Origin: a virus | Lineage: Duplodnaviria; Heunggongvirae; Uroviricota; Caudoviricetes | IMG/VR virus record: IMGVR_UViG_2648501186_000003 | Span: 1-55,284 of that record | Reading direction: 5' to 3' (one strand) | Length of the DNA stretch: 55,284 nucleotides | Shown here: positions 29,858 to 35,848 of the stretch, piece by piece | How the letters are laid out: the number at the start of each line of letters is the position of its first letter | How positions within the stretch are numbered: position 1 is the first letter of the stretch | The notes under the pieces: model-generated | What the model saw: the letters and a program-made list of their open reading frames with translations, nothing else | Database searches by the model: none | Told to the model about the DNA's origin: nothing | Position numbers and translations under genes: made by a program

Positions 29858-31420
29858 ATGAAAATGACAAGTATTCAACAACGTGCAGAGCTTCATCGTC
29901 AAATCTGGCAAATTGCTAACGATGTCAGAGGTTCTGTCGATGGATGGGATTTTAAGCAATACGTTCTGGGCGCACTTTTCTACCGTTTTATCAGCGAAAA
30001 TTTTTCCAGTTATATGGAAAATGGTGATGACAGCATCTGTTATGCGGCACTTGATGACGGCATTATTACTGATGACATTAAAGACGATGCCATCAGAACC
30101 AAAGGCTACTTCATCTACCCCAGTCAGCTTTTCTGCAACGTAGCGGCGAAAGCAAATACCAATGACAGACTGAATGCAGATTTAAATAGTATCTTCGTTG
30201 CTATCGAAAGCTCTGCTTACGGTTACCCTTCAGAAGCTGACATCAAAGGTTTGTTTGCTGATTTCGATACAACCAGTAACCGCCTGGGGAATACCGTTAA
30301 GGATAAAAATGCCCGCCTGGCTGCGGTTCTGAAAGGGGTTGAAGGGTTAAAGCTTGGCGACTTTAACGAACATCAGATTGACCTGTTCGGCGATGCCTAT
30401 GAGTTCCTGATTTCTAACTATGCCGCGAATGCCGGTAAGTCCGGCGGCGAGTTCTTTACACCGCAGCACGTCTCTAAGCTGATTGCACAACTGGCTATGC
30501 ACGGGCAGACCCACGTTAACAAAATCTACGACCCGGCAGCAGGTTCCGGTTCTCTGTTATTGCAGGCTAAAAAGCAGTTTGATGACCACATCATCGAAGA
30601 AGGTTTTTTTGGTCAGGAGATCAACCATACGACCTATAACCTGGCGCGTATGAACATGTTTTTGCACAACATCAACTACGACAAGTTTGATATCAAGCTG
30701 GGCAATACGCTGACTGAACCGCACTTCAGAGATGAAAAACCGTTTGATGCCATCGTTTCTAACCCGCCGTATTCGGTGAAATGGATTGGCAGCGATGACC
30801 CGACGCTGATTAACGATGAGCGTTTTGCCCCGGCTGGCGTTCTGGCCCCCAAATCCAAAGCTGACTTTGCGTTTGTATTACATGCGCTGAACTATCTTTC
30901 GGCCAAAGGTCGTGCTGCGATTGTCTGCTTCCCGGGTATTTTTTACCGTGGCGGCGCAGAGCAGAAAATCCGTCAGTATCTGGTCGATAATAACTATGTC
31001 GAAACCGTAATTTCACTGGCTCCGAACCTGTTCTTTGGCACCACCATTGCCGTAAACATTCTGGTTCTGTCCAAACATAAAACGGATACCAACGTTCAGT
31101 TTATTGATGCCAGCGAACTGTTCAAAAAAGAGACCAACAACAATATCCTGACCGATGCCCATATCGAACAAATTATGCAGGTATTCGCCAGCAAGGAAGA
31201 TGTTGCTCATCTGGCGAAATCTGTCACGTTTGAGACCGTTGTAGCGAATGACTATAACCTGTCAGTGAGCAGCTATGTGGAAGCGAAAGATAACCGCGAA
31301 ATTATCGATATTGCTGAGCTGAATGCTGAGCTGAAAACCACGGTCAGCAAAATCGACCAGTTGCGCAAAGATATTGATGCGATTGTGGCTGAAATTGAAG
31401 GCTGCGAGGTGCAGAAATGA
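29858..31420 (+). CDS. hsdM: Type I restriction-modification methyltransferase subunit (Type IC, EcoR124-like)
   Basis: 520 aa; N6-adenine methyltransferase motifs (NPPY), N-terminus like EcoR124 HsdM as remembered. Confidence 0.95.
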
Positions 31421-32610
31421 GCGAGATGAGTTATCTGGAAAAATTGCTGGATGGGGTTGAGGTTGAGTGGTTGCCATTGGGGGAAGTCTCAGCCTTAAGA
31501 AGAGGCAGAGTTATGTCAAAGGGATATTTAACTGAAAATTTTGGCCCATATCCTGTCTATAGCTCTCAAACTGCAAATAATGGGAAAATAGGTTCTATCA
31601 ATACCTTCGATTTTGATGGCGAATATATAAGCTGGACAACAGATGGCGCAAATGCAGGCACTGTGTTCTATCGAACAGGTAAATTTTCAATAACTAATGT
31701 TTGCGGCCTGATTACATTAAAAAGTAAATACCCATTAATCTACAAATTTCTGTTTTACTGGCTAACAATAGAAGCCAAAAAACATGTTTACTCAGGAATG
31801 GGAAACCCCAAGTTAATGAGTCATCAGGTTGAAAATATACCTGTACCAATCCCCTGCCCGGATAATCCGGAAAAATCCCTTGCCATCCAGTCTGAAATCG
31901 TTCGGGTTCTGGATAAATTTACTGCACTTACCGCTGAGCTTACCGCTGAGCTTACCGCTGAGCTTAACATGCGTAAAAAACAATACAACTACTATCGCGA
32001 CCAGTTGTTGAGTTTTAAAGAGGATGAGGTTGAGTGGAAGACTTTAGGAGAAGTGGCTCAATACTCGAAAACAAGAATTAGTTTCGAACTACTTGATGAA
32101 AGGAATTATGTTGGCGTAGATAATCTGCTGCAAAACAGAGCAGGAAAATCATTATCTAATCATGTACCGACATCAGGTAAATTAACGGAGTTTATACCTA
32201 ACGATATATTGATTGGGAATATCCGCCCATATTTGAAAAAAATTTGGCAAGCAGATTGTATCGGTGGAACAAATGGCGATGTATTGGTTATTCGTTGCAT
32301 AGATAGCTCAATAAATACCAGATATCTATATCAGATTTTGGCAGATGACAAATTCTTTGAATACAACATGCAGCATGCTAAAGGAGCAAAAATGCCGCGT
32401 GGCAGTAAAGAGGATATAATGAAATACCCAATCCCTGTACCGCCACTCACCTGGCAAGCTCGCATTGTCGAAATACTCGATAAATTCGACACCCTGACCA
32501 ACTCCATCACTGAAGGTCTTCCGCGTGAAATCGAGTTACGCCAAAAACAATACGAGTACTATCGTGATTTACTGTTCAGTTTCCTAAAAACTGAAACTGT
32601 CAGTAATTAA
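31417..32610 (+). CDS. hsdS: Type I restriction-modification specificity subunit (Type IC) with TAEL x3 central repeat
   Basis: 397 aa; central [13 protein letters not shown]; start overlaps the hsdM stop. Confidence 0.9.
31927..31962 (+). repeat. Three perfect tandem copies of a 12-bp unit (cttaccgctgag) inside hsdS
   Basis: Seen directly; encodes the TAEL repeats. Confidence 0.95.
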
Positions 32611-32731
32611 TTGACCATTGCTACCGACCGGGCCACCTTAACACCCGGTCAGTATATAGACTATTTTTTACACGCTGGAAGTCACCATTAACGCCCTTCC
32701 GGCCCTTGCCAGACGGCACAAAGGATGCGCT

Positions 32732-35700
32732 ATGACTCATCAGACACACACCATTGCTGAATCCAATAACTTTATCGTCCTTGATAAGTACATCAAAGCT
32801 GAGCAAACAAGCGACAGCTACCAGAGCGAATCGGACCTGGAACGTGAACTGATTCAGGACCTGCAAAATCAGGGCTATGAATTTATATCCGTAAAATCAC
32901 AGTCAGCGATGCTGGCCAACGTTCGGGAACAGCTTCAGAGCCTCAATGGTGTGGTATTTAATGACAGCGAATGGCGGCGTTTCACGGAGCAGTATCTGGA
33001 CAACCCGAGCGATGGTATTCTGGATAAGACCCGTAAAATCCATATCGACTATATTTGCGACTTTATTTTTGACGACGGGCGTCTTGAGAACATCTATCTG
33101 ATCGATAAAAAGAATCTCATGCGCAACAAAGTGCAGATTATCCAGCAGTTTGAACAGACGGGTTCTCATGCTAACCGTTATGACGTCACGATCCTGGTTA
33201 ATGGCTTACCACTGGTACAAATCGAACTGAAAAAGCGCGGCGTGGCGATTCGTGAGGCTTTCAACCAGATACATCGTTACAGTAAAGAGAGTTTTAACAG
33301 CGAAAATTCCCTGTTTAAGTATCTGCAACTGTTTGTCATTTCTAACGGCACCGATACCCGTTACTTTGCCAACACCACAAAGCGCGATAAAAACAGTTTT
33401 GATTTCACCATGAACTGGGCGAAATCAGACAACACGCTGATTAAAGACCTCAAAGACTTTACCGCCACCTTTTTCCAGAAACATACTCTGCTTAATGTTC
33501 TGGTGAACTACAGCGTGTTCGATATTAGCCAGACGCTACTGGTGATGCGACCGTACCAGATTGCCGCCACCGAACGAATCTTATGGAAAATCAACAGCTC
33601 CTATAAAGCGAAAAACTGGTCTAACCCCGAAAGCGGTGGCTTTATCTGGCACACCACCGGTTCTGGTAAAACCCTCACCAGCTTTAAAGCCGCGCGGCTG
33701 GCAACAGAGCTGGACTTTATTGATAAAGTCTTCTTTGTGGTCGACAGAAAAGACCTCGATTACCAGACCATGAAGGAATATCAGCGTTTTTCGCCAGACA
33801 GCGTCAACGGCTCGGAAAATACCGCAGGCCTTAAACGAAATCTGGATAAGGACGATAACAAAATTATCGTCACCACTATTCAGAAACTTAATAACCTGAT
33901 GAAAACAGAAAGCGACCTGCCTGTATACAATCAGCAAGTGGTGTTTATATTTGATGAATGTCACCGCAGCCAGTTTGGAGAAGCGCAGAAAAACCTGAAG
34001 AAGAAATTCAAACGCTATTATCAGTTTGGTTTTACCGGCACCCCTATTTTCCCGGAAAACGCTTTAGGTTCAGAAACGACCGCCAGCGTATTTGGTCGTG
34101 AATTGCATTCGTATGTAATTACCGATGCGATTCGTGACGAAAAAGTGCTCAAATTCAAGGTGGACTACAACGATGTGCGGCCACAGTTTAAGTCTTTAGA
34201 GACAGAAACTGACGAGAAAAAACTAAGTGCGGCTGAAAATCAGCAGGCGTTTCTTCATCCCATGCGTATTCAGGAAATCACGCAATATATTCTGAATAAT
34301 TTCCGCCAGAAAACTCACCGTACCTTCCCTGGCTCAAAAGGTTTTAATGCTATGTTGGCAGTGAGCAGCGTGGATGCCGCGAAAGCCTATTATGCGACGT
34401 TTAAACGGTTACAAGAAGAAGCCGCTAATAAATCGGCTACCTATAAACCGCTGCGTATTGCGACAATCTTCTCCTTTGCCGCCAATGAAGAACAAAATGC
34501 CATTGGTGAAATTTCCGATGAAACTTTTGATACCAGCGCAATGGACAGCAGTGCTAAAGAGTTTCTGGACGCTGCAATTCGTGAATATAACAGCCATTTT
34601 AAAACTAACTTTAGCACCGACAGTAACGGTTTTCAGAACTACTATCGTGATTTAGCCCAGCGGGTTAAAAATCAGGATATCGATCTGCTAATTGTCGTGG
34701 GGATGTTCTTAACCGGCTTCGATGCTCCAACATTGAACACGCTATTCGTCGATAAAAACTTACGTTTTCACGGCCTGATGCAGGCATTTTCCCGCACCAA
34801 CCGCATTTATGACGCCACTAAAACCTTCGGTAATATCGTCACTTTCCGGGATCTGGAACGCTCAACTATTGATGCCATAACGCTGTTTGGTGACAAAAAC
34901 ACCAAAAATGTGGTGTTAGAAAAGAGTTATACAGAGTATATGGAAGGCTTTACTGATGCTGCTACAGGTGAAGCTAAACGCGGCTTCATGACAGTAGTTT
35001 CAGAACTGGAACAACGGTTCCCTGACCCTGCCAGTATTGAAAGTGAAAAAGAGAAGAAAGACTTCGTTAAACTGTTTGGTGAATACCTGCGTGCCGAGAA
35101 CATCCTGCAAAACTATGATGAATTTGCCACGCTGAAAGCCCTGCAACAAATCGATCTTAGCGATCCTGTTGCGGTAGAAAAATTCAAAGAAGAACATTAT
35201 GTGGATGATGAAAAGTTCGCTGAATTGCAAACGATTCGTCTCCCTGCTGAACGCAAGATTCAGGATTATCGTTCTGCCTATAACGATATTCGTGACTGGC
35301 AGCGCCGCGAGAAAGAAGCTGATAAAAAAGAAAAATCAACCACTGACTGGGATGACGTGGTTTTTGAGGTCGATTTGCTGAAGTCTCAGGAAATAAACCT
35401 GGATTATATCCTTGGACTGATTTTCGAACACAACAGACAAAATAAAGGCAAGGGCGAAATGATTGAAGAGGTCAAACGCTTAATTCGTTCAAGCCTGGGG
35501 AACCGGGCGAAAGAGGGCCTGGTGGTCGATTTTATTCAGCAAACGAACCTGGATGATTTACCAGACAAAGCCAGTATCATTGAGGCATTCTTTACGTTTG
35601 CTCAACGCGAACAGCAACGTGAAGCAGAAGCATTGATAAAAGAAGAAAATCTCAATGAAGATGCAGCAAAACGCTATATTCGCACGTCTTTAAAACGCGA

Positions 35701-35848
35701 ATACGCCACCGAAAATGGCACAGAATTAAACGAAACATTACCAAAACTTAGTCCGTTAAATCCGCAATATAAAACGAAAAAACAGGCAGTTTTCCAGAAA
35801 ATCGTCTCGTTTATTGAGAAGTTTAAAGGCGTAGGCGGAAAAATATAG
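32732..35848 (+). CDS. hsdR: Type I restriction endonuclease subunit (Type IC)
   Basis: 1038 aa; helicase motifs (TGSGKT, DECH) and an N-terminal nuclease region. Confidence 0.95.

Follow-up and report, generated by a model that had tools for sequence, protein, structure and literature searches.

The closest described relatives of the locus reported here are the Type IC restriction-modification (R-M) systems EcoR124I and EcoR124II of the IncFIV plasmids R124 and R124/3. In these systems, as in EcoDXXI and EcoprrI, the hsd genes are flanked by phage P1 sequence, with phd-doc upstream and the operator Op88 and pap downstream. A P1-flanked arrangement of Type IC hsd genes is reportedly already named in the title of a paper by Tyndall et al. 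(1997, Mol Microbiol 23:729). We analysed a 55,284-nucleotide virus sequence (IMG/VR record IMGVR_UViG_2648501186_000003, positions 1 to 55,284; this whole stretch is hereafter called the window), in which an hsdM-hsdS-hsdR cassette has the same P1 flanks. Judged by its sequence, this cassette is very probably a complete EcoR124-family (Type IC) R-M system carried as cargo of a P1-like phage-plasmid. It shares with EcoR124I and EcoR124II the M-S-R gene order, an ATGA-coupled hsdM and hsdS, a separate hsdR, P1-derived flanks, and HsdM and HsdR proteins that match at about 98% identity from end to end. It differs from the P1-flanked loci named above in that a full P1-type backbone surrounds its flanks on both sides, running from pacAB, c1, cre and darB to pmgS, ppp and ban; the replicon is a complete P1-like phage-plasmid, whereas that of EcoR124 is an IncF conjugative plasmid.

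Gene content and Type IC identity of the cassette

A preliminary description of the window had claimed a complete Type IC hsdM-hsdS-hsdR cassette on the plus strand, and the list of open reading frames (ORFs) places all three genes, each at full length, at exactly the coordinates given there. The gene hsdM (29858-31420, with the RefSeq start at 29864) encodes a 520 aa N6-adenine methyltransferase subunit with matches to TIGR00497 (646 bits), N6_Mtase and HsdM_N; hsdS (31417-32610) encodes a 397 aa specificity subunit that matches Methylase_S in two stretches; and hsdR (32732-35848) encodes a 1038 aa motor and endonuclease subunit with matches to TIGR00348 (759 bits), HSDR_N, SWI2_SNF2/ResIII, a T1R_D3-like domain and EcoR124_C. 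PADLOC concurs with Pfam and NCBIfam on the identity of all three. The ATGA overlap joins hsdM to hsdS, and a gap of 121 bp precedes hsdR, giving the gene order of Type IC loci, in which hsdR is set apart from the hsdMS unit. No prrC gene was found between hsdS and hsdR, where there is just the 121 bp of non-coding sequence, so the locus is not of the prr type represented by EcoprrI.

The HsdM sequence aligns end to end with EcoR124 HsdM (PDB 7bst), from which it differs at 8 of 520 residues, and HsdR aligns with EcoR124I HsdR (PDB 2w00) over residues 1-1038, with about 20 differences in the roughly 970 residues displayed (about 98% identity). The catalytic motifs are present in both proteins: DPAAGSG at residue 225 and NPPY at residue 302 in HsdM, and D151...E165-x-K167, QIHRY at 179, GSGKT at 310 and DECH at 408 in HsdR. 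The conserved N-terminal, central and C-terminal regions of HsdS also align with those of EcoR124 HsdS, as expected of a Type IC specificity subunit. The criteria that set Type I families apart are complementation, hybridisation and antibody cross-reaction; the relatedness of HsdM and HsdR to Type IC proteins was here judged by sequence only. When the window copies were compared with those of phage phi456 and plasmid pYDC107_184, the ratio of nonsynonymous to synonymous divergence (dN/dS) was 0.06-0.10 for hsdM and hsdR, with hsdR at 0.06, and both genes are thus under purifying selection. It is because of this near-identity to EcoR124, the intact motifs and the low dN/dS that we regard the cassette as a complete and selectively maintained Type IC system.

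The non-coding parts of the cassette hold candidate expression signals. The 5' part (29758-29857, plus strand) has no counterpart in P1-type relatives without hsd, and presumably contains a promoter for hsdM-hsdS, with a -10-like hexamer, TAGAAT, at about 29820-29825. The intergenic region between hsdS and hsdR (32611-32731, plus strand) contains a hairpin at about 32626-32650, a T-run and a promoter-like site at 32638-32667, features that fit a predicted separate promoter for hsdR such as Type IC systems have. In the 3' part (35849-35923, plus strand), the last position of which is the right end of the cassette, there is a hairpin with an 11-bp stem at about 35864-35893. This hairpin lacks a U-tract on either strand, and no canonical intrinsic terminator was found directly 3' of hsdR; the first plus-strand terminator-like site past the gene, at 36042-36066, lies within the P1 flank. 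No known RNAs were detected inside the cassette at Rfam gathering thresholds.

The P1 slot and the replaced cargo operon

The backbone of the window is that of a P1-like phage-plasmid (Punavirus), with its genes in P1 order and 96-98% nucleotide identity to P1 on both sides of the cassette. The C4 RNA, tRNAs, DarB, Cre, C1, Ban and Dmt are all present, and the C1 operator consensus is matched 15 times, against a chance expectation of 0.29. The neighbours on the left (pacB, pacA, lpa, pdcB, pdcA, doc and phd) and on the right (pap, pmgS, pmgQ and ppp) are P1 backbone genes that all lie on the minus strand, bearing out the earlier observation that the hsd genes run antisense to the phage operons. 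Nearest to the cassette on the left are the toxin gene doc (29080-29460, minus strand; TIGR01550 DOC_P1 and Pfam Fic; 98.4% nucleotide identity to P1 doc) and the antitoxin gene phd (29460-29681, minus strand; PhdYeFM and TIGR01552), which matches P1 phd in position. These are followed by a retained Pphd promoter region (29682-29757, minus strand), corresponding in position to the Pphd of the P1 annotation. On the right, the phosphatase gene pap (36115-36621, minus strand; HAD_PNKP) corresponds to P1 pap.

Homology to P1 ends at window position 29757 (P1 87970) and resumes at 35924 (P1 84482), and the break points 29757/29758 and 35923/35924 are identical when the window is compared with P1, P7, RCS47 or JL22. 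The cassette therefore extends from 29758 to 35923 (6166 bp) and displaces the 3487 bp that in P1 hold pmgT-pmgU-pmgV-upfMNO-hot-lxr-humD. The preliminary description had placed the cassette where P1 carries hot, lxr and humD, and comparison with the P1 annotation agrees; it had also called the cassette inserted, and although the location was right, a simple insertion does not describe what is seen, as the whole pmgT-humD block has been replaced. These boundaries agree with what the P1 annotators recorded in GenBank and RefSeq, where P1 87969..88647 is noted as 98% identical to the sequence upstream of EcoDXXI hsd, and P1 84263..84482 and 84399..84482 as matching what lies downstream of hsd in EcoDXXI and of hsdR in R124/3, respectively. 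The hsd-flank limits of that record (87969 and 84482) coincide with the boundaries measured here.

Both edges of the slot retain what look like traces of a different occupant. At the left break, just past the phd promoter region, what remains of the humD stop codon (TTA, read on the plus strand) is found at 29754-29756. At the right, the window keeps the PpmgT leader (35924-36114, minus strand), at a place where the P1 annotation has OpmgT, P1pmgT and P2pmgT. This leader region includes the C1 operator Op88 (36099-36115, one mismatch to consensus) and a PpmgT promoter-like site with its -35 at 36099-36094 and its -10 at 36076-36071, directed leftward into the 3' end of hsdR; no co-oriented gene is left downstream of it. 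The hairpin at 36042-36066 within the leader has its terminator-like T-run on the plus strand and no U-tract on the minus strand. The right break lies 4 nt beyond a 28-aa ORF of the leader, inside the Shine-Dalgarno stub of what would have been the first cargo gene. In P1, P7, RCS47 and JL22, co-oriented cargo begins about 6 nt past this boundary and humD is retained in all four; the slot cargo of P7, RCS47 and JL22, while always co-oriented, is different in each. Taken together, these observations suggest that the hsd version arose when a co-oriented cargo operon was replaced, and the polarity of this event is proposed because the orphaned PpmgT promoter, its leader, the Shine-Dalgarno stub and the humD stop codon persist.

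The 28-aa ORF itself (36014-35928, minus strand; MNTAFKIIMTAIYFWLFSITFGGIVAHG) encodes a hydrophobic product, has an AGGAG site upstream. The part of the C1-controlled PpmgT leader in which it lies is conserved in P1, P7, RCS47 and JL22, and a small hypothetical ORF is annotated at this site in phi456 and JL22, though not in P1. At the same edge, pap is more divergent from its relatives at synonymous sites (dS 0.21-0.30) than pmgS, pmgQ, pdcB and lpa are (0.04-0.10), suggesting that recombination has taken place, or older alleles persist, at this boundary of the slot.

Several of the observations made so far count against the account given above. The case for the direction of replacement is built on vestigial features, not on a phylogeny. 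The hsd genes have a dS of 0.13-0.21, about twice that of most backbone neighbours (0.04-0.11), and given this contrast the cassette and the backbone do not have a simple common history; the higher values are compatible with the exchange of hsd alleles by recombination. In addition, 11 promoter-like sites were found in the region where 13.3 are expected by chance, and the promoters named here are consensus-level guesses.

The slot is a known site of variation. A 2022 survey of P1-like phage-plasmids (PMC9603915) counts pmgT-humD and res-mod among eight regions that are highly variable, and the same cassette occupies the same slot in the same orientation in phi456 (OR339795.1), in vB_EcoM-673R5 (ON470615.2) and in porcine enterotoxigenic Escherichia coli (ETEC) plasmids (NZ_CP122664.1 and pP136-6). 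Over 13.6 kb, NZ_CP122664.1 is 100% identical to the window; it differs in having a frameshifted SIR2 gene and IS91 insertions, neither of which is found in the window. The hsdS gene of phi456 is split by a transposase gene of the IS5 family, and the target recognition domains (TRDs) of 673R5 HsdS are unlike those of the window. Since phi456 carries the cassette and forms plaques (PMC10967188), growth does not require the replaced genes. In the phi456 record (locus 5013-7450), the interrupting transposase is labelled 'putative baseplate hub protein', and the hsdS fragment downstream of it shares its TRD2 with the window. In 673R5, hsdM and hsdR are annotated as split, and the splits coincide with small alignment gaps of a kind also seen in phd, pap and pmgQ; these gaps are likelier to be sequencing or assembly indels than marks of real pseudogenes.

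The layout is also common. A doc-to-pap query was covered to 80% or more by 487 PLSDB records, and a 13.6-kb pacA-to-ppp query to the same extent by 180; among complete E. coli genomes (n=5426) the hsdR-pap junction is found in 221 and the pap-pmgS backbone in 634, a ratio of about one third. Large IncF plasmids have a shorter block corresponding to window positions 28591-36007, which in pYDC107_184 is bounded by the insertion sequences (ISs) IS5 and IS1, and the right end of this block matches the 84-bp R124/3 homology of the P1 record. IncF plasmids such as R124 thus carry the same module truncated by IS elements. In synteny the window is distinct from P1, P7, RCS47 and JL22, yet there is nothing unusual or new about its layout, an already known, common and functional-looking arrangement; the long-known link between hsd and P1 has been found again, with slight value as a discovery, and P1-like phage-plasmids emerge as a major natural home of the Type IC family.

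With a layout this common (221 hsdR-pap junctions against 634 backbones), one may ask whether the hsd arrangement is ancestral in the P1-like lineage, with the pmgT-humD cargo of reference P1 gained later. The hsd alleles having diverged beyond the backbone suggests age, and the hsd genes and P1 backbone fragments held together by IncF plasmids point to an old association. We nevertheless consider this unlikely: a C1-controlled PpmgT with its leader and Shine-Dalgarno stub has been kept without any co-oriented gene, a humD stop codon stands at the left boundary, and P1, P7, RCS47 and JL22 all have co-oriented cargo and humD, which are signs of operon replacement and not of a later gain. The damaged copies among relatives (hsdS interrupted by the IS5-family element in phi456, IS interruptions in several plasmids and the split hsdM and hsdR of 673R5) might instead indicate that the cassette is decaying or silent and has no restriction activity left. 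For the window this is very improbable, as its ORFs are all full length, every catalytic motif is kept and the dN/dS values are low, and the single-base gaps of 673R5 also affect the backbone genes phd, pap and pmgQ, for which sequencing error is the likelier cause.

Two further proposals concern what the cassette does in this slot. The doc-phd pair and hsdMSR are found linked in P1-like elements and in the IS-bounded IncF block alike, as they would if their main role were plasmid maintenance, with toxin-antitoxin and R-M genes forming a linked stability unit, and not phage defence. There is little reason to favour this, as the linkage may be positional only, phd-doc being the conserved left edge of the slot, and Type IC restriction alleviation spares the host when modification lapses (PMC12707154), which opposes post-segregational killing. 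The retained Op88 (one mismatch) and the promoter-like site pointing into hsdR raise a different prospect, namely that PpmgT has been co-opted and fires antisense through hsdR on C1 inactivation, lowering HsdR in lytic growth; the intervening hairpin, with no U-tract on the minus strand, would probably not stand in its way. If true, this would tie a Type I R-M system to the phage lysis-lysogeny switch. The chances of it seem slim, however, given that the retained promoter may be a mere vestige, that control in Type IC systems is known to act after translation, and that the R124-type IncF copies, which are functional prototypes, keep 84 bp of the flank without the operator. All four of these proposals are less likely than that the cassette is an EcoR124-family system carried as cargo.

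The HsdS allele and predicted activity of the system

The window HsdS has the same conserved frame as that of EcoR124 and differs in its specificity-determining parts. The limits of TRD1 (about 31490-31846, plus strand) and TRD2 (about 32041-32476, plus strand) were taken from homology breaks with 673R5 and phi456, and both TRDs are unlike those of EcoR124 HsdS, for which reason a recognition sequence differing from that of EcoR124 is expected. Between them, the central conserved region contains three TAEL repeats (31930-31965, plus strand; HsdS residues 172-183), as in EcoR124II. The number of TAEL repeats sets the length of the spacer between the half-sites, a rule drawn from EcoR124I/II, EcoDXXI and EcoprrI (PMC3874165), and on the basis of the three repeats a 7-nt spacer is predicted for the window HsdS.

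This pairing of TRDs is rare, the exact hsdS allele being found in only 3 of the 5426 complete E. coli genomes, all three from pigs. The TRDs taken singly are more widespread, TRD1 occurring in 87 genomes and TRD2 in 62 (each with at least 99% identity), mainly in chromosomal loci, a distribution that reflects the usual shuffling of TRDs. The hsdS of pP136-6 (NZ_CP080229.1; 301-1482 of the extracted locus) has the window's two TRDs with two TAEL repeats, and encodes 393 aa compared with 397 aa in the window; the hsdS of an ETEC1730 plasmid has the same length as that of pP136-6, 1182 nt. From their sequences, we take the window and pP136-6 alleles to be natural N6/N7 spacer variants, a predicted counterpart of the EcoR124I/II spacer switch in P1-like plasmids of porcine E. 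coli. A difference of one TAEL repeat among such close relatives indicates that a spacer-length switch occurred among them.

How the system would work is inferred from the biology of EcoR124I. Co-transcription of hsdM and hsdS, with translational coupling through the ATGA overlap, would supply the methyltransferase subunits, and hsdR would be expressed from its own promoter in the 121-bp gap. An M2S1 complex would methylate one adenine per half of a bipartite target, the halves being read by the two TRDs of HsdS, and on an unmethylated target R2M2S1 would translocate DNA at the expense of ATP and cleave at a distance. During establishment in a new host, the chromosome would be spared by the Type IC route of assembly through a cleavage-incompetent R1M2S intermediate; such assembly control has been reported (PMC12707154). 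A lysogen would then restrict incoming unmodified phage and plasmid DNA, the element's own DNA being marked. In practical terms, lysogens of such elements may be expected to restrict incoming DNA.

Other defence and antirestriction genes of the backbone

The preliminary description had noted that the element also encodes DarB and a Dam/Dcm-like Dmt, and so combines a Type I R-M system with antirestriction and methylation functions. Both genes were found and the combination is real. DarB (7765-14532) is a protein of 2255 aa, and Dar reportedly counters several Type I systems by acting in cis on packaged DNA (PMC12707154). Dmt (51735-54776, minus strand; 1013 aa) contains a C5 methyltransferase domain and a D12 Dam-type domain. 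P1 makes a similar pairing, in that its Type III res-mod system EcoP1I accompanies virion antirestriction proteins (DarB, Ulx) and a Dam/Dcm-type methyltransferase; in P1, however, the R-M system is of another type and at another locus, and in the window the res/mod slot is occupied by a SIR2-domain gene. Weak Pfam matches of Dmt to Hint_2 (aa 77-126) and LAGLIDADG_3 (aa 298-361) raised the idea of an intein-bearing Dmt peculiar to the window; that the ORF is peculiar was rejected, the dmt of P1 OP279344.1 being of the same length and 99% identical. About one third of the Dmt ORF is missing from P7 and others.

A SIR2 module had been proposed at the res/mod position. The position proved correct, the SIR2_2-domain gene (15293-16597, minus strand; 434 aa) lying between lxc and mat in the P1 res/mod slot; the module proved to be a single SIR2-domain gene, because the adjoining 222-aa ORF, considered as a partner and rejected, is homologous to P1 mat and has no PADLOC match. 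The SIR2 ORF is intact in the window, and its top PADLOC matches are to PDC-S25 and ThsA-like models.

Elsewhere in the window there are two modules of the immI type, each with a c4 antisense RNA, icd and ant. One (17635-19166, plus strand) is flanked by mat and cre, at the position of ref in P1, and the other (22845-24426, minus strand) lies between c1 and pacB, with a match to the isrK RNA family adjoining its C4. Three tRNA genes on the minus strand (49397-49469, 50913-50984 and 50990-51062) are located in the ban-dmt interval, as in P1.

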